A DNA stretch of 32,755 nucleotides from a virus (Duplodnaviria; Caudoviricetes), in IMG/VR virus record IMGVR_UViG_3300032239_000345, positions 1-32,755 of that record; one strand, written 5' to 3'. Positions 11,724 through 29,691 of the stretch are shown here, piece after piece (the first letter of the stretch is position 1; every line of letters starts with the position of its first letter). The notes under the pieces were generated by a model. That model had not been told where the DNA came from and made no database searches. It was given only the letters and a program-made list of their open reading frames with translations. The position numbers were made by a program, and so were the translations under genes.

Positions 11724-13778
11724 ATGCCATTACAAATTAGACGCGGCACAAACGCAGAAAGATTATCAATCACACCAGCCGCAGGTGAACCAATTTATGC
11801 CACTGACACACATGTGTTGGCAGTGGGTGATGGAGTTACACCAGGTGGTTACGTGGTTGGTGGTTATACGCTAAACACAGCCACTGCCACTGTGTTAGGT
11901 GGCATCAAAGTTGGTTCAAACTTGAGCATTGCCGCAGATGGCACACTGAGTGCAACCGCTCAAGCATTTACAGGCACTGCATTTAACTTAACAGCCACAA
12001 ACCAATTGACTGTGGGCAATCGTGCAGGTGTATATGTAACACTTGATACCACTGGCAATGCTGGAACTTGGGCAACATTTAGCACAAATAATGCTTTTTC
12101 TTTTGATAAAACTGTAAACTTTACAGGTGGCAGTGGCATTAATGGATCCATTGTATTATACAATGGTATAACTGGTGGACCCAATGGCTATACTCCAGTC
12201 GTAGTTTGGAATCCATTGAGTGTGGTCATGAATAGTCAAACACTATTGGCAGTTACCAACACCAATGCCACATTTACAGTGCCTGTTGTAGGCACAACTG
12301 CCACATTCAACAATGTGGCCATTGGACTAACCACTATTGTAAGTTCTGGATCTACCAGTACACTGACAGCATCAACATCAGGTAATATTTTAATCACTGG
12401 CAGTCAAGTTCAATATATTCAACTACCAGATGCCACAACATTATCTAATGGCGCTTTATATTTCATCAACAACAACAGCAGTTATACTGGCAGTATTCCT
12501 GTTAAAAATGCTGGTGGCACTCAAATAGGCAGTGTTGCATATGGTGCCGCGGCCAACATTATTTTAACAACCAATTCTACAGCCAATGGCACTTGGGATT
12601 TCCATGGATTTGTGCCTAGCGCAGTGATATTTGGTCAAAATTCATTGCAATTAGGCAGTAGTTCTTATACCATTGGTGCCAATAACTCAACATTGACAGT
12701 GGGCAATAGCAGTGGCAATTTGGTATTGAATGGTTCTATCAACCAAGTCAAATTCAGTGATGCCACAATTCAAACCACAGCTTATTTGGGAACTGCCACA
12801 GCCACAACAGTGGGTGGTGTTAAAGTTGGTAGTGGTATTAACTTGGCAGGTGATGGCACTATTAGTGTTACGCCATACACACTAACATCAGCCACATCTA
12901 CAACATTGGGTGGTGTTAAAGTTGGTCCAGGTTCAACCACTGGACTTTATTTGACCAGTGATGGATCATTGAGATTACAACAACCCAGCTATGCTATCAG
13001 CAATAGCAGTGCGTTGGGTTCATATAGTGCAAGTGTAAACAGCACTTCAACTAATAGTTTGGCCAGCACTTGGACAACATCATTAATAGTAACTAATGAA
13101 ACTGGTGGATATGCTACACTTACAGTTGTGGCACCATACACAGGTCAGCCCAATACCAGCACAGTAGTTTATAGTTCAACTGGACCAGTCACTATTGCAG
13201 CCAGCAGTGGCACAAACTCTGCTTATGCAGGATTTACATTTACTGCCAATGGTGGAGCACGTAGTGATAGCAGTGGAATTTATTTCCCAGACAGCACATT
13301 CCAACAAACTGCCTATTTGAATGCCAAAACCATGTATGCCAAGGGCAAGATTGTTTCTGGTAATCCTGCAACAACCAGCACATATGGCATATTGCCCATG
13401 AATACCAGCACAGCTGGCACAAGTTTGGGCTTTGTGAATGATCCTAACTACTTCATTGGCGCAACCAATTATAGATTCACTCCTACAGTAGCAGGCATGT
13501 ATATGATTAATGCCATTGCAACATTTAACCCCACATTCAATACCGCTGACACGGGCACAATTGGATTTGCGTTCTATAAGAATGGTAGTATTGCCAATGC
13601 CGTAGTTGATCAAGTCAACGTGTATCAACAAAAAACTTTGACATTGTCTGGCATGCCTTTCATGAATGGCACAACTGATTACGTTGACTTCCGCGCAATA
13701 AGTGGTGCAATTAGTCAAACACAGACCATTAACGGCACGCAAAACTACACCAGCTTCTGGATTAACTTGGTAAGATAA
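11724..13778 (+). CDS. Second tail fibre: Mtd N-terminal-like anchor, AT...LGG[IV]KVG repeats, C-terminal C1q/TNF-like domain
   Basis: N-terminus MPLQIRRGT...P..GE..Y.TDT; three GG[IV]KVG repeats; two F.D.T.Q.TAY repeats; C-terminal RFTPTVAG.Y...FYKNG...NGTTDYV. Confidence 0.8.
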   Translation: MPLQIRRGTNAERLSITPAAGEPIYATDTHVLAVGDGVTPGGYVVGGYTLNTATATVLGGIKVGSNLSIAADGTLSATAQAFTGTAFNLTATNQLTVGNRAGVYVTLDTTGNAGTWATFSTNNAFSFDKTVNFTGGSGINGSIVLYNGITGGPNGYTPVVVWNPLSVVMNSQTLLAVTNTNATFTVPVVGTTATFNNVAIGLTTIVSSGSTSTLTASTSGNILITGSQVQYIQLPDATTLSNGALYFINNNSSYTGSIPVKNAGGTQIGSVAYGAAANIILTTNSTANGTWDFHGFVPSAVIFGQNSLQLGSSSYTIGANNSTLTVGNSSGNLVLNGSINQVKFSDATIQTTAYLGTATATTVGGVKVGSGINLAGDGTISVTPYTLTSATSTTLGGVKVGPGSTTGLYLTSDGSLRLQQPSYAISNSSALGSYSASVNSTSTNSLASTWTTSLIVTNETGGYATLTVVAPYTGQPNTSTVVYSSTGPVTIAASSGTNSAYAGFTFTANGGARSDSSGIYFPDSTFQQTAYLNAKTMYAKGKIVSGNPATTSTYGILPMNTSTAGTSLGFVNDPNYFIGATNYRFTPTVAGMYMINAIATFNPTFNTADTGTIGFAFYKNGSIANAVVDQVNVYQQKTLTLSGMPFMNGTTDYVDFRAISGAISQTQTINGTQNYTSFWINLVR

Positions 13779-14020
13779 TGAGCACAATACAGACCATTGA
13801 TGCAGAAAGTAATAGCCTTGAGACACACGTGGAATTGTGTGCTCAACGCTATGAAGCATTGGATCAAAGATTGATCAGTGTGGAAAACAAAATTGATGGT
13901 GTACACATGCGAGTTGAAATTCTACATGCTGACTTATGGAAAGTTCTAATTGGCACAATTGGCACAGTTCTAGTCAGCATTATTACCACAGCAGGCGTGA
14001 TAATTACACATATAAAATAA
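13778..14020 (+). CDS. Small coiled-coil protein with one C-terminal transmembrane helix (holin-like candidate)
   Basis: 80 aa; coiled coil followed by VLIGTIGTVLVSIITTAGVII. Confidence 0.55.
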   Translation: MSTIQTIDAESNSLETHVELCAQRYEALDQRLISVENKIDGVHMRVEILHADLWKVLIGTIGTVLVSIITTAGVIITHIK

Positions 14021-23197: not shown

Positions 23198-23659
23198 ATG
23201 AACATGAGTGTAGAACAAGCCTTAACCAAAGTATTCTGTAGCAATTATGTTGCCTACCACAAAAGCCACGCGGCACATGTCAACATAGTGGGCAGAAATT
23301 TTGGCTCAGATCACAAGCTATTAGAGAAGGTTTACACTGATTTAGAGGCTGAAATTGACACAATTGGCGAACTTTTACGCACAATTGACGCCTATTTTCC
23401 ACTGACACTAGCTGACACTATGGCGGGCAGTGATATCCCTGATGACCTCTTGCCAGACTTCAATGATGGTTTGGATTACATTCAACAGGTCTATGATGAC
23501 CTTGAAAAGTTAATTGAAGTTTATCTTGAATTGGAAGATGAAACACAAAACGAACGTGGCTATAATCATCTAGCCAACTACGCACAGGATCGTGTTCGTG
23601 CATTGAAAAAACACAATTGGATGTTGGGTGCAACGCTCAACGGTCGCATGACATTTTAA
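23198..23659 (+). CDS. dps: Dps / DNA-binding ferritin-like protein
   Basis: H..H.N..G.NF...H.LLE..Y.......D.IGE..R signature with ferroxidase His, His, Asp, Glu; C-terminal KH.WML. Confidence 0.9.
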   Translation: MNMSVEQALTKVFCSNYVAYHKSHAAHVNIVGRNFGSDHKLLEKVYTDLEAEIDTIGELLRTIDAYFPLTLADTMAGSDIPDDLLPDFNDGLDYIQQVYDDLEKLIEVYLELEDETQNERGYNHLANYAQDRVRALKKHNWMLGATLNGRMTF

Positions 23660-23968: not shown

Positions 23969-23997
23969 TTGACTTTTGCCGTGTATTCCAGTATCAT
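23969..23997 (+). promoter_or_regulatory. Sigma70-type promoter P1
   Basis: TTGACT (23969-74), 17 nt spacer, TATCAT (23992-97); no ORF follows before the terminator. Confidence 0.75.
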
Positions 23998-24003
23998 TGT
24001 TTT

Positions 24004-24215
24004 ATAACATATAAATAATGTTGTGATGGTAGTTTGTATCTCCTCAGAAAAGTCAATTAGTTTTCCATCACACTTGTATTATTCGTCATCAACATGTTTG
24101 GTTTAATATCATTCTTTTAATGACTCCATTGGTTATGCAGGCAAGGCTCTTCAATAAACAATAATACAAGTTCAAATCCCCTAATTAGTGCAATGCTAGT
24201 TAGGGGATTTTTTTT
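24004..24215 (+). ncRNA. Putative structured multi-target antisense RNA (sRNA1)
   Basis: Bounded by a promoter and a terminator; stems 24022-29/24065-72 (8 bp) and 24072-83/24160-71 (12 bp); enclosed sequences are complementary to 24267-24336 and 26003-26011. Confidence 0.75.
24174..24215 (+). terminator. Intrinsic terminator of sRNA1
   Basis: aaatcccctaattag pairs with ctagttaggggattt (one G-U), ending in an 8-T run. Confidence 0.9.
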
Positions 24216-24226
24216 GGTTTGTCTGA

Positions 24227-24255
24227 TTGACAAAGTCAATAATATCATATATACT
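24227..24255 (+). promoter_or_regulatory. Sigma70-type promoter P2 (polymerase-like gene)
   Basis: TTGACA (24227-32), 17 nt spacer, TATACT (24250-55); overlaps a CTAAATA box at 24254-60. Confidence 0.85.
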
Positions 24256-24288
24256 AAATATTAGACAGCCTTGCCGCTAACAGAAGAC

Positions 24289-24318
24289 ATGGAGACGTTT
24301 TTGAAAGAAGCTATATGA
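24289..24318 (+). CDS. Putative leader peptide (uORF) METFLKEAI
   Basis: ATG...TGA within the P2 leader, ending just before the SD (TAAGGA) of 24334; an in-frame TTG at 24301 follows GGAG. Confidence 0.35.
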   Translation: METFLKEAI

Positions 24319-24333
24319 TATTAAGGAAACATT

Positions 24334-25350
24334 TTGAATTACATACCAAATTATAACAATAAAGCATTTCGCCGTAGAGCCACAATGGCTTTACAATTCG
24401 TAAAACAATTTGTTAAACGAACTCAACCCAATTGGTTAAGCACTCGTTGGATCCATGATCCAAAGCATTTTGGACAAGCTGGAAAACCTATTAGTGAATA
24501 TCTCAAAGAACAATTGCTAATATGCACTGATCACCATTTTAATTGGCAAACTGGTAAATGCAAATACTATGTGCAAAATGTAGATGGTATCAAACAGCTT
24601 GAACAGGCACTTAATGGGCCTGTAATAAAACCAACAATTACAGCCAAATTGGAATCCCAATTGGACACTGGTGAATTTGAATATAATGATTCCAGTGACA
24701 GATTATATAACCCCTTACAGAATTTGCCTGTGTATGTTAAAAGGGATCTGTTATCTAACAAGGGCTACAACTACAATTATGATATTGTTTGCGCCGCACC
24801 TACTTTGTTGTATCAACACGCACAACGTCAAGGACTAAACAAACAACTCACGTACCTTGAATTTTACATAGCTAATAGAAGTAAAGTTCGCGATGAACTT
24901 GCTATCAAATACAAATTGGAGTTAAAACAAGTTAAGCAATTACTTACAAGTTTATTCCAAGGAGCATATCTATCTGTTAATCACACAACCAGTTGTTATC
25001 ATCTCCTAAATGGAAACTATCATTTAATTAAACAATTACAAGCAGATCCATTCTTGTTTGAACTAAGAAGTGATATCAAACAGATGTGGAAAGCAATTAC
25101 TCCTCAAATGAAACTACAACTTAATAAAAAAAGAATATGTAGTAAAGATAAAACTGCCAAATACAGAGAACTTGAACGAAATGTAATGAATGTGATTAAG
25201 AGAGAACTTCGTAGAACTAAGAACAGACATTTACTTCAACATGATGGTTGGACTAGTAAGGAGATATGTGATGTGAATATGTTAAGGAGTTATGTGAGAA
25301 GTCACACTGGGTTTGTAATAGAAATTGATTGTGAAATTTATGTCAACTAA
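24334..25350 (+). CDS. Stand-alone minimal family-A-like (TV-Pol-like) polymerase/primase domain protein
   Basis: RLYNPLQNLP (cf. GRLSS..PNLQNIP), motif A YDIVCAAP, motif B KQLLTSLFQG, YRELE, motif C LLQHDG; no exonuclease or helicase domain; TTG start with SD TAAGGA. Confidence 0.72.
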   Translation: MNYIPNYNNKAFRRRATMALQFVKQFVKRTQPNWLSTRWIHDPKHFGQAGKPISEYLKEQLLICTDHHFNWQTGKCKYYVQNVDGIKQLEQALNGPVIKPTITAKLESQLDTGEFEYNDSSDRLYNPLQNLPVYVKRDLLSNKGYNYNYDIVCAAPTLLYQHAQRQGLNKQLTYLEFYIANRSKVRDELAIKYKLELKQVKQLLTSLFQGAYLSVNHTTSCYHLLNGNYHLIKQLQADPFLFELRSDIKQMWKAITPQMKLQLNKKRICSKDKTAKYRELERNVMNVIKRELRRTKNRHLLQHDGWTSKEICDVNMLRSYVRSHTGFVIEIDCEIYVN

Positions 25351-25411
25351 TAAAAGCAAAATAGCAAAATACAGATTATATTGTATACCTTTTTAAAGAA
25401 AGATAGATAAA

Positions 25412-25822
25412 ATGAAAGAATTGTACCCTTGTTTAACACATATATTTGATAATTTAAATTTAAGAAAAATGAAAGCCTATTTGGAATATGTTGAAGGCGG
25501 TTATTATGACCACCCAGATGAACTTTTTTTAGAATCTCTGTGGGAAGATGTTCATGATAAATTTGATACAACATTACCAAAAGACATTTCCATTTGGGAT
25601 CGTTATATTGCTCATGATCAATTAGATTTTAAATTATATCAAAATGGATTGTTATGGAATCTTGAATATGAAGGATCTTGGTTTGTTAATAATTTTTATA
25701 GACCATCAAATTCACTTGACGAACTTATGAATGAAGAAAATTTTTATGATGAATTAGAAAAAATAAGTCCATTTAGAACTATTAAGGAGAATAAAAATGA
25801 AAAAATCAATACCCCCATATGA
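25412..25822 (+). CDS. Acidic hypothetical protein
   Basis: 136-aa ORF rich in Asp/Glu and aromatics, in the AT-rich early region. Confidence 0.7.
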   Translation: MKELYPCLTHIFDNLNLRKMKAYLEYVEGGYYDHPDELFLESLWEDVHDKFDTTLPKDISIWDRYIAHDQLDFKLYQNGLLWNLEYEGSWFVNNFYRPSNSLDELMNEENFYDELEKISPFRTIKENKNEKINTPI

Positions 25823-25994
25823 AAAACACGCTAACCATACAGTGGAAATTCGTACAACACATTTTCATAATGGTTATTACTATATGTGTTCAGATTGCTT
25901 ACTTCATTTAGGTTGGCTTTCCAAACAAGAAGTTGCCCAAGCAAAATCCTTAGGCTTGACAAAAACAAACGATACCAGTATAATTAATAAATAA
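25797..25994 (+). CDS. Small putative zinc-binding protein
   Basis: HANH...H...CSDC...WLS; SD TAAGGAG. Confidence 0.7.
   Translation: MKKSIPPYEKHANHTVEIRTTHFHNGYYYMCSDCLLHLGWLSKQEVAQAKSLGLTKTNDTSIINK
25956..25984 (+). promoter_or_regulatory. Sigma70-type promoter P3
   Basis: Perfect TTGACA (25956-61), 17 nt spacer, TATAAT (25979-84); ATAAATA box at 25987-93. Confidence 0.9.
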
Positions 25995-26017
25995 ACTTGT
26001 TACTGAGGAGAAATGAA

Positions 26018-26449
26018 ATGAAAACTTTAACACCAAGAATTGAAAATAAAATTAAGAGAATAGTAACGTTTGTAGATATTATAAACTACTATTATGATGA
26101 ACATCCTGATGGTCTAAATGATAACAAAGAGTTTTGGGACATATTTCATGAGTATGTAAATCCATTAAGTGAGGATTGGGTCATAGATACAGAAGAAATT
26201 CTGCATGAACATTTTAGTCCTTATTTTCAAAAATATCCCTATGTGAATATAGGTACAGAACATTTAAAAAAATCTATATTGCTAGGCAAACCCTTGACCA
26301 AACCAGATGTTCCCAGTAAAAACAGAAACACTTTAAGGGCTTGGTTCAATATTAGAGATGTGATCAATGAGATTAGTGGCTATGAACCACCCAAGCGGCC
26401 TAAACCAGCCAGTGATAATCCATTTGATAATTTATTTGATAGGAATTAA
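26018..26449 (+). CDS. Hypothetical early protein; RBS complementary to sRNA1 hairpin I
   Basis: SD GAGGAG at 26005-10, ATG 26018; first gene after P3. Confidence 0.8.
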   Translation: MKTLTPRIENKIKRIVTFVDIINYYYDEHPDGLNDNKEFWDIFHEYVNPLSEDWVIDTEEILHEHFSPYFQKYPYVNIGTEHLKKSILLGKPLTKPDVPSKNRNTLRAWFNIRDVINEISGYEPPKRPKPASDNPFDNLFDRN

Positions 26450-26909: not shown

Positions 26910-27423
26910 TAAGGCGCATACGTGGCGTTGGGCAGATGTGCGTGACATCATGCCCATTGTGGCCATGGCGCAACAACAGTTTCAAACGGAAATTGATTCA
27001 ATTCTAACACCTGATCCTGCTGTCTATGCCTACAATATAGACAAGGCCATTACCACACAGAGACACACCTTGGACCAAACACAATTGTTGGTGTGTTATC
27101 AAGGTGAGAAATTAATTGCCTACACATGGATCTCACGTGGTGTTTACACTGACTACAGCAGAGATGAAATTGCTGAAGCACGTTTTCTACACATGGATCT
27201 TGACCTAAGCACACGAGTAAGAATTCAGTTGTGCCAAGAAGCATTAGATCATTGGGTCAAATGGTGCAGTAGTATAAATATACCAGTGCTGGTCAGTACC
27301 AGTATTAGGCGAGACCAACGTGCCTTTTTGCGTTTGCATGAACGCATGGGGTTTGATATAAGAGGTAGCATTGCCTACAAACGTATAAAGGAAATGAAAT
27401 GCGAGCAACAGGAACAAAATTAG
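26896..27423 (+). CDS. Second GNAT-like acetyltransferase
   Basis: WRWA...DI..I start, KLIAY.W, AFLRLHERMGF C-terminal motif. Confidence 0.65.
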   Translation: MNAIDKAHTWRWADVRDIMPIVAMAQQQFQTEIDSILTPDPAVYAYNIDKAITTQRHTLDQTQLLVCYQGEKLIAYTWISRGVYTDYSRDEIAEARFLHMDLDLSTRVRIQLCQEALDHWVKWCSSINIPVLVSTSIRRDQRAFLRLHERMGFDIRGSIAYKRIKEMKCEQQEQN

Positions 27424-27662
27424 TAATTACTAAGATTGAAGTGGAACAGAAATCAGCCAGTGGAATCATATTCACCAATCAACAAGATCCCAACCCCAGT
27501 GCCAAGATCCTAAGTGTGGGACCTTCAGTTAAGGAAAAGAATCCAGAACTTGAAGAGGGACAGACTATTACAGTGGAATGGCAACACTGTGTCAAAGTAA
27601 TTCGTCAAGGTGTGACCTATTACATTGCTGATGCACAATCAGTCTACGCCATTGAGGAATAA
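27399..27662 (+). CDS. groES: Co-chaperonin GroES/Cpn10-like protein
   Basis: 87 aa; mobile loop EQKSASGIIF, ILSVGP, G..Y.I.....V.AIE; no groEL in the genome. Confidence 0.85.
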   Translation: MRATGTKLVITKIEVEQKSASGIIFTNQQDPNPSAKILSVGPSVKEKNPELEEGQTITVEWQHCVKVIRQGVTYYIADAQSVYAIEE

Positions 27663-28300: not shown

Positions 28301-28834
28301 ATGAATAACTTCCGTCATACGGGCACCTTTGATTACCAGCCCATACTCAGTGAGATAGTGGCCAACCCCGCATGGAATTGGCTTAACCTAAGAAGTTATG
28401 CGGGTCATACGAGAGATATAATATTACGTTATCAAAGTGTGGAAACCAATAAAACTATCAAGGATTTCTATACCAATCCCCTTTGTGTGGATTATTTTGT
28501 GCAGAGTTATTTTCCCAAGACCATGCAGTTAATACGCAATCACGTGGGCGATAAGAGCATAGGACGCATAGTAATAGCTGAACTAACCCCTGGCCAGCAA
28601 GTGGCTCCACACATTGACGAGGGGTTTTATAGTGATAATACTGATAGGCACCACTTTGTGGTCTCTACCAACGTGGAGTGTGTGATGATGAGTGGGAATG
28701 AACACCAACACATGCCCAGAGGCACCATATGGTGGTTCAACAATCATGTTACGCATTCAGCTGACAACAAGGGCACCACTACAAGAATACATGTGATAGT
28801 GGACACGTACAAAGATGACTCAGTTAACCTCTAA
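28301..28834 (+). CDS. Aspartyl/asparaginyl beta-hydroxylase-like Fe(II)/2OG oxygenase
   Basis: L.PG..V.PHID, R.H, G.IWWFNN...HS..N.G...RIH.IVD (HxD...H triad). Confidence 0.88.
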   Translation: MNNFRHTGTFDYQPILSEIVANPAWNWLNLRSYAGHTRDIILRYQSVETNKTIKDFYTNPLCVDYFVQSYFPKTMQLIRNHVGDKSIGRIVIAELTPGQQVAPHIDEGFYSDNTDRHHFVVSTNVECVMMSGNEHQHMPRGTIWWFNNHVTHSADNKGTTTRIHVIVDTYKDDSVNL

Positions 28835-29184: not shown

Positions 29185-29213
29185 TTGACATCTCAGGCCT
29201 AATCATGTATAAT
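29185..29213 (+). promoter_or_regulatory. Sigma70-type promoter P4
   Basis: Perfect TTGACA (29185-90), 17 nt spacer, TATAAT (29208-13). Confidence 0.9.
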
Positions 29214-29219
29214 ATGTAT

Positions 29220-29311
29220 GATAGTGTAGCAAAACATCACGCAAACTAATTCGCCTTGGTCTCGTGGAGTTTTGAGAACCCTAGTTCAATCATGTTCTAG
29301 GGTATCTTTTT
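29220..29311 (+). ncRNA. Putative small RNA of about 90 nt (sRNA2)
   Basis: Lies between P4 and the hairpin accctag/ctagggt (29278-84/29297-303) followed by atcttttt; no credible ORF. Confidence 0.55.
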
Positions 29312-29326
29312 GAGTAAAATATCTTA

Positions 29327-29355
29327 TTGACAAATCCACAATGTTCCTGTATAAT
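29327..29355 (+). promoter_or_regulatory. Sigma70-type promoter P5 (leaderless transcript)
   Basis: Perfect TTGACA (29327-32), 17 nt spacer, TATAAT (29350-55); ATG begins at the 7th base after the -10 box. Confidence 0.9.
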
Positions 29356-29361
29356 TAATAC

Positions 29362-29691
29362 ATGAAACACACTAATAGAGATTACGATAATTTTAAATTT
29401 GTAGCGTTTAGCCAATATGGTATTCCTGGACAAATATTAGATGTAGTTCGTCCTTGGGTTGAAAAAGAATGCGGTAAAGATTTTTGGAGTCATGATGATG
29501 ATTTAGGTTACGCTGAATTAGGCAGAATTACTACACTGGATCAAGCATTGAAAGAACTTCAAGTTATATTGACAATGATGAAGGTTGATGGTAAAAGAAC
29601 TTATAACAACTTTCTTAAGGACGCTGGTGGTAGAGTTGGTAAAGGATTCTATCGCAAAGCACTCAAAGCATATTATTTGATGGGTGCTTAG
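29362..29691 (+). CDS. Hypothetical protein, leaderless and independently expressed
   Basis: 109 aa, no SD, start coincides with the predicted P5 transcription start. Confidence 0.75.
   Translation: MKHTNRDYDNFKFVAFSQYGIPGQILDVVRPWVEKECGKDFWSHDDDLGYAELGRITTLDQALKELQVILTMMKVDGKRTYNNFLKDAGGRVGKGFYRKALKAYYLMGA

Follow-up and report, generated by a model that had tools for sequence, protein, structure and literature searches.

We analysed a 32,755-nucleotide stretch of phage DNA, IMG/VR record IMGVR_UViG_3300032239_000345 (the window; positions are those of this whole stretch), and found in it a conserved RNA of about 190 bases whose loops are complementary to ribosome-binding sites (RBSs) of its own genome and of T4-like jumbo phages. 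Judging from sequence, the best explanation, to which we give a probability of about 0.55, is that this RNA is a multi-seed trans-acting translational repressor in a podophage predicted to parasitise a T4-like jumbo phage of about 350 kb, and that it would damp genes of both viruses. The genomic picture suggests that the small phage is likely to live as a parasite of the jumbo phage. The region 24004-24215 folds better than 200 of 200 shuffles (z -4.2), into hairpin I, domain II and a terminator. Hairpin I, its promoters and its target in this genome are as follows.

23969..23997, + strand: sigma70-like promoter TTGACT-17-TATCAT upstream of the RNA, with 10/12 matches
24010..24017, + strand: TATAAATA, a T4/Rak2-type late promoter motif, with a predicted start near 24022; TAAATA occurs 16 times on the + strand of the window and 0 times on the - strand
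24022..24072, + strand: hairpin I, an 8-bp stem around a 35-nt, mostly open loop, found in the same place in 37 relatives, whose stems are unrelated in sequence
24032..24054, + strand: hairpin-I seed with the core TCTCCTCAG, pairing with the phage's own P3 RBS
25956..25993, + strand: promoter P3, a perfect TTGACA-17-TATAAT plus TAAATA (25988-93)
26003..26011, + strand: target CTGAGGAGA, which contains the Shine-Dalgarno (SD) sequence of gene 26018
26018..26449, + strand: gene 26018, a 143-amino-acid (aa) all-helical protein with a C-terminal FDNLF (26423-37), a candidate sliding-clamp-binding tail

The original prediction held that hairpin I, formed by TGTGATGG (24022-29) and CCATCACA (24065-72), displays at 24039-47 the exact complement of the site at 26003-11 in front of the ATG at 26018. 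These positions proved exact, and both 9-mers occur once each on the + strand (0.13 expected). The proposed pairing on both sides of the core was reproduced by RNAduplex, which gave -19.0 kcal/mol with the P3 leader. Burial of the loop had been named as a possible refutation; the seed is predicted to be open, at an opening cost of 1.1 kcal/mol at 37 C and 1.9 at 20 C with either 5' end. Gene 26018 ranked first among 39 own start regions for the hairpin-I loop, at -16.7 against -10.8 for the next, a margin of about 6 kcal. Taken alone, the 9-nt match in this genome is weak: 30% of 5000 shuffled loops match some own start region over at least 9 nt, and with TCTCCT held fixed p = 0.033. Comparison with relatives, given below, provides stronger evidence. 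Behind the same SD, a mini open reading frame (ORF), ATG-AAA-TGA at 26013-26020, overlaps and precedes the 26018 start. Another 10-nt complement, between 24057-24066 and the RBS of gene 31448, is a possible extra seed.

Co-variation of loop and target was examined in an orthologue of 26018 from the relative L055, which is 52% identical, likewise the first gene after TAAATA, and has a different RBS. Cognate pairs of loop and RBS reached -19.0 and -19.9 kcal/mol and swapped pairs -12.8 and -14.7, so that 5-6 kcal/mol were lost each way; this comparison amounts to one independent pair. The L055 loop placed its own orthologue at rank 1 of 37, at -22.9 against -11.8 for the next, a margin of 11 kcal. 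Other results weigh against a general role at this gene. Four distant 26018 orthologues have AAAGG-type sites with own-loop scores of -11.8, -9.7, -5.2 and -4.4, the loops of G025, G024 and G026 pairing poorly with their own orthologue (-5.2, -9.7 and -4.4, respectively). Two foreign loops, those of G024 and G023, equal the window loop in their pairing with P3. A swap among six orthologues gave 18/720 permutations by local energy but 93/720 by RNAduplex. We conclude that targeting of 26018 is likely to be real in the window and L055, that it is not fixed across the family, and that the hairpin-I match to the P3 RBS is likely one real seed among several.

The RNA belongs to a family in related small phages. 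Loci were collected through homologues of a polymerase-fold gene (109) and of the capsid gene (80), after which 32 small-phage records were read, in full or to the extent available. Family members were defined by a TAAATA motif with a stem no more than a few bases behind it, then a large loop and a terminator; 40 RNAs were curated, and the doubtful L031, G009 and G011 were dropped before counting, leaving 37 (19 in whole records, 18 in loci). Such stems were found at 14/600 random positions. The family stems differ in sequence, and swapped strands paired in 26/1332 combinations, the cognate value being 37/37 by construction; this swap test replaced a covariance model or pair count because the stems were not aligned by plain MAFFT. 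Of the 37 RNAs, 34 carry an anti-SD motif in their loops (15 on average and at most 24 in shuffles) and 34 an anti-AUG motif (22 on average and at most 30), often complementing an entire RBS. In 20/37 RNAs the terminator (24174-24210 in the window) or a nearby hairpin is capped by a GCAAT-type loop, which may be a protein-binding or tertiary motif. No Rfam family matched at gathering score in the window and none matched the L054 or L055 RNA at E 0.1, the covariance model of c4 antisense RNA included; a below-threshold match to Atu_At1 at L054:8537-8644 (50 of 60 bits) is unrelated to the RNA studied.

Fit to the own genome was measured for the 37 RNAs against 942 start regions of all genomes (simple gene caller), with row and column effects removed. 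Cognate exact-complement length was enriched (z 4.5 and 5.1). By a local nearest-neighbour score, whose absolute values are approximate, z was -3.4 to -3.7 at TAAATA-led leaders and a non-significant -1.0 to -1.2 at other start regions. The strongest cognate signal came from leaders with both sigma70 and TAAATA sites (z -4.0; 30 genomes, 46 leaders) and was z -2.8 without the window and five kin. On the other side of the balance, cognate whole-loop RNAduplex energy showed no enrichment (z about 0), and the RNA was not detected in 10/32 small-phage records. These data bear on the idea that hairpin I is a broad anti-RBS element against jumbo phage or host and that its P3 match is incidental, AGGAGA being a common SD there. 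The frequency of 9-mer matches in shuffled loops suits this idea, as do the TTTGT(A/T)TCTCC seed, retained by sister phages in which the 26018 orthologue has no such site, and the many jumbo start regions matched by the loops. We nevertheless regard it as improbable, given the L055 pair with its different sequence and wide margin, the confinement of enrichment to promoter-proximal leaders, and the occurrence of AGGAGA only 3 times in this genome.

The preferred reading is a repressor acting on two genomes. Domain II and the leader downstream of the RNA, which bear on the link to jumbo phages, are as follows.

24072..24171, + strand: domain II, a 12-bp stem (24072-83/24160-71) around a large loop
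24124..24148, + strand: domain II seed, complementary to the own P2 leader and to jumbo head-operon leaders
24174..24215, + strand: intrinsic terminator with a GCAAT loop; GCAA(T/C) lies 3' of hairpin I in 20/37 RNAs
24227..24260, + strand: promoter P2, composite sigma70 + TAAATA
24265..24277, + strand: start of the P2 leader, ACAGCCTTGCCGC, common to the jumbo head-operon leader
24334..25350, + strand: first gene of P2, a 338-aa protein with a minimal family-A polymerase fold (model predicted local distance difference test score, pLDDT, 92)

Domain II ranks the P2 leader first of 10 own targets and pairs with it at -28.1. A search pattern built from the P2 leader found 120 loci, 76 of which are the leader of a gene starting MSTKFEQ-like; this jumbo head gene, which has no match in annotated phages, lies between the portal gene and the prohead protease, scaffold and major capsid genes. 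The P2 leader is the conserved leader of the jumbo head operon. The jumbo records are fragmentary and reach 133 kb at 36% completeness, from which a genome of about 350 kb is estimated, and the jumbo capsid protein is 68-70% identical to those of CBB, GAP32, BF and relatives. Across 55 jumbo leaders, domain II paired at a median of -29.5 with the SD covered. Among 75 jumbo families, the head family came top for 9/21 domain-II regions, and 12/37 RNAs paired with head leaders at z below -2.5 relative to SD-preserving shuffles. A late sigma is encoded in 7/7 jumbo fragments and in 0/30 small records of at least 90% completeness. Within the domain, a further 10-nt complement joins 24103-24112 to 24315-24, beside the SD of the polymerase-fold gene, and is another possible seed. 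In one low-depth contig hairpin I and the terminator are kept and 89 bases of domain II replaced, which hints at modular exchange or at an assembly error.

Hairpin I, too, has predicted jumbo partners. Out of 638 jumbo start regions it best matches that of the gene following the major capsid gene, the complement of whose RBS is resembled by the 5' half of the seed, TTTGTATCTCC. The sister phages G024 and G026 hold 14- and 12-nt exact complements to 9/24 jumbo post-capsid RBSs, their own best being 12 and 9, and the window loop has one change in the seed relative to this match. Over 75 jumbo families, the family loops gave 199 events against 79 for shuffles, with tail sheath highest at 11. The jumbo post-capsid gene is preceded, at L391:18610-18680 and elsewhere among the jumbo loci, by a conserved hairpin-like motif, TATGC.G...CGCGTAG...TAGAAC. 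Pieces resembling the jumbo head operon numbered 690-1370 in three sequencing runs from a single study, two of which may be where this DNA came from; this is a weak indication of co-occurrence, as such phages may be in most similar samples; no holder of the RNA was found among the sequencing runs listed.

Several observations count against action on the jumbo phage. Three of the 12 RNAs with low z at head leaders, those of the window, L055 and L101, are circular, since the leaders of the window, L054 and L055 had gone into the head-leader search pattern. On the jumbo set the window loop gave p = 0.10, and its exact complement was found in no jumbo post-capsid RBS. A late-gene bias of hairpin-I loops on jumbo start regions was tested and none appeared, late families showing no difference from the others. 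The phage moreover has its own polymerase-fold gene and strong sigma70 promoters. Control of the own genome only, as in the original prediction, with the RNA repressing the P2 and P3 mRNAs and the jumbo matches following from a leader and RBS copied as expression signals, would agree with the cognate enrichment at own leaders, with the better fit of the window loop to P3 than to any post-capsid RBS (0/24 by RNAduplex; median -14.0 against -19.0), and with the L055 loop, which reaches -22.9 on its own gene and -18.0 on the best of 638 jumbo start regions. We hold this to be unlikely, for domain II fits 34/55 jumbo leaders better than its own, SD covered, the G024 and G026 seeds fit a jumbo RBS better than any own start region, and an RNA with these seeds would meet jumbo mRNAs in a co-infected cell anyway.

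These results also revise the architecture first proposed, one modular RNA acting on the P2 and P3 mRNAs through different domains. In favour of the two-leader part, each domain ranks its leader first among own targets, and the L055 co-variation and family-wide cognate enrichment agree with it; its weaker side is the poor pairing of the four distant 26018 orthologues and the equal pairing of foreign loops with P3. A two-headed RNA is too narrow a description: both domains also match jumbo mRNAs and the family loops hold several anti-RBS cassettes, which makes more than two heads. The promoters, predicted to be sigma70, do contain such sites at 23969-97, P2 and P3, and are composite with TAAATA rather than purely sigma70. 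TATAAATA lies beside the sigma70-like site, and TAAATA is likewise part of P2 and P3; the probable start of the RNA is therefore at hairpin I, at about 24022. In the part of PMC5259590 available, ATAAATA, located 5' of structural genes, is put forward as the late promoter of CBB and GAP32.

Transcription of the RNA by the jumbo late polymerase is favoured because TAAATA is in the family definition and a good sigma70 site (at least 10/12) precedes only 8/37 RNAs. In the mechanism that we propose, the jumbo late sigma would switch the RNA on; hairpin I would keep ribosomes off 26018 and, with looser binding, off the jumbo post-capsid gene, and domain II would block the jumbo head operon as well as the phage's own polymerase-fold gene. 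The outcome would be that own early functions are shut off and helper head assembly is damped while the small phage packages itself. The order could also be reversed into a helper-sensing switch, in which a sigma70-made RNA holds the polymerase-fold gene and 26018 off in a quiet carrier state until abundant jumbo late mRNAs, which have this leader too, titrate it and set the two genes free. For this speak the seed common to own and jumbo leaders, of which the jumbo one binds as well or better, the sigma70 site of the window's RNA and its closest relatives, and the absence of an integrase or repressor match. We judge it improbable: the sigma70 site is confined to the minority just given, the predicted binding of hairpin I to P3 exceeds that to typical jumbo RBSs, which would make titration of the hairpin-I head poor, and no sign of a carrier state was seen.

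Within the dual-genome mechanism, the protein encoded by 26018 may be an early adaptor or competitor that binds the helper sliding clamp through its FxxLF tail. Its structure model has six helices and a loose tail (pLDDT 75), with no named structural or fold match, and three residues, F136, L139 and F140, do not vary among 8 homologues, whose identity is 21-94%. A C-terminal FxxLF is found in 15/951 small-phage proteins (0.4 expected) and in 2/638 jumbo proteins, both DNA polymerase; it ends 26018, 7/7 aligned homologues and both jumbo polymerases, as would be expected of a gp45/PCNA-type clamp binder, which has a hydrophobic C-terminal motif in common with its DNA polymerase. The gene upstream of the jumbo DNA polymerase resembles gp45/PCNA clamps by language-model features; the clamp profile PF02916 matched 0/13, and a PDB sequence search was also without match. 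From sequence comparison, the FxxLF tail is likely a clamp-binding motif. The original prediction had cast 26018 as a lytic switch or toxic protein. Neither role found any support and both were rejected: none of 40 ORFs matched an integrase or a repressor, and the 143-aa protein has no family or fold match to a toxin. In type I toxin-antitoxin systems, a short hydrophobic toxin is repressed by an RNA; this candidate was rejected as well, the target having 143 aa and six helices. As for the partner of the tail, T4 proteins with such tails bind a clamp that serves replication and late transcription, according to the portions of PMC7892883 and PMC9690074 available. A point against a helper clamp is that the host beta clamp, whose motif is given as QL(S/D)LF in the same portion of PMC9690074, is an alternative partner.

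The 338-aa product of the P2 gene had only Pol I structures as best Foldseek matches (E 3e-4) and no Pfam or PHROG match. Asp150 and His303-Asp304-Gly305 are invariant in its 38 homologues, including catalytic-type Asp residues, and in G024, G025 and G026 a different gene stands there behind a similar leader. The module of TAAATA, RNA and polymerase-fold gene was also seen in further records of 25-30 kb, G011, G014, G018 and G022 among them, in which this capsid protein has no counterpart by sequence match, and hence appears to span virion types. The capsid family itself is abundant (551 capsid-gene stretches).

The record is that of a complete 32.6-kb podophage with direct terminal repeats, and the + strand carries 39/39 called genes. 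The gene order is terminase, SU10-type portal and capsid, tail and injection genes, Dps, the RNA, the polymerase-fold gene, small early genes, HNH, GroES and a 2-oxoglutarate (2OG) oxygenase; genes for its own encapsidation (terminase, portal, capsid, tail) are present. In a PHROGs scan of 40 ORFs, with a Pfam scan of 17 ORFs in this genome, no ORF resembled an integrase, a repressor, a helicase, a primase or a sigma factor; single-stranded DNA-binding protein (SSB) and ligase had no match among the 40 ORFs, and no antirepressor match was found in the genome. The region had no match in annotated phages, and locus searches by single protein returned 0 and 1 loci. Other features include a Dps-like ferritin (23204-23659), GroES (27399-27662), a 2OG-type oxygenase (28301-28834) and an 80-aa ORF (13778-14020), which has a weak PHROG match with the label hemolysin (E 0.002) and may encode a membrane or lysis protein. 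At 29185-29312 a perfect sigma70 promoter without TAAATA precedes a second hairpin RNA candidate (29220-29312) and a terminator; no recurring target was found for this candidate, and its predicted -22.8 kcal/mol with the main RNA is a figure without a chance baseline. At 29327-29691 another perfect sigma70 promoter precedes a leaderless 109-aa ORF of no known family.

The analysis supplies a sequence signature for parasites of ~350-kb jumbo phages, namely late promoters in a genome that lacks a late sigma, a leader identical to the helper's, a tail of polymerase type and an antisense RNA, and it would link an abundant capsid family to a predicted helper clade. More speculatively, and with considerable doubt, widespread undescribed virophage-like podophages may parasitise Rak2/T4-like jumbos, borrowing their late sigma and sliding clamp; a modular RNA with swappable loops complementary to entire RBSs would run the take-over, and copied leaders would let one seed silence helper head assembly and let helper mRNA time parasite replication, so that the RNA would sense one virus from within another. 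The pairings are short and explicit, and could be tested in E. coli reporters without culturing either phage; the RNA would also be a natural scaffold with exchangeable targeting loops.

The RNA family, its helper link and its targeting were not found in the literature searched, most subscription papers lying outside this scope. In a catalogue of 10,006 viral structured RNAs (PMC10690425), six motifs were unmatched in 6 supplementary files; files 1, 2 and 4 were outside the search, and the family may be listed there without targets. In the available part of a 2026 review (PMC13359090), whether large phages attract satellites is described as unclear, with few cases, ICP1 and MindFlayer being about 130 kb.

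Among known systems, c4 RNA of P1/P7 and sar RNA of P22 are likewise phage RNAs that block translation by pairing around an RBS, c4 having its complements in loops. As far as the text seen of PMC12197685 goes, these act on one antirepressor mRNA in temperate immunity, whereas here several targets lie in two genomes and the RNA has no Rfam match. The late transcription of T4 (gp55/gp33/gp45), CBB and GAP32 offers a second likeness, with TATAAATA/ATAAATA late promoters, a gp55-like sigma and C-terminal clamp motifs on the polymerase and transcription factors (available portions of PMC7892883, PMC5259590 and PMC9690074); our jumbo capsid protein shares 68% identity with those of CBB and GAP32. 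The difference is that late promoters and tail motif stand here in a second, 33-kb genome without the sigma; in addition, the part of PMC5259590 available reports no gp45 in CBB, whereas a clamp beside the polymerase is suggested here, by language-model features only. The MiniFlayer/Mulch satellite phages of Streptomyces resemble the present case as small phages with their own encapsidation genes, few replication genes and dependence on a larger phage, and MiniFlayer does not integrate, as stated in the abstract of PMC10690885. The window has no match to a late sigma, helicase, primase, SSB or ligase, but holds a minimal PolA-fold gene. Unlike in those satellites, the helper would be a T4-like jumbo of about 350 kb; the signs of dependence are a clamp-type tail and late promoters unaccompanied by a late sigma, and that abstract does not mention a small RNA (sRNA).

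The one comparable RNA in the literature searched is SviR, the sRNA by which the Vibrio cholerae satellite PLE acts against phage ICP1: it is satellite-encoded and trans-acting, has more than one seed and lowers helper translation (bioRxiv 10.1101/2022.04.08.487710, as far as the available part of the preprint tells, here and below). Its seeds, too, are complementary to 5' regions of both satellite and helper, which in our case is a matter of predicted pairing only. PLE is an integrated island in helper-derived particles, whereas the podophage has its own virion genes and no integrase match. SviR has a separate seed for each genome, whereas every seed of our RNA appears to suit both, because the own leaders copy the helper's. 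The seeds sit in stem-closed loops that vary between family members, and no homology is claimed. By sequence, the RNA is best read as a SviR-like, dual-genome sRNA of a putative capsid-forming jumbo-phage satellite.

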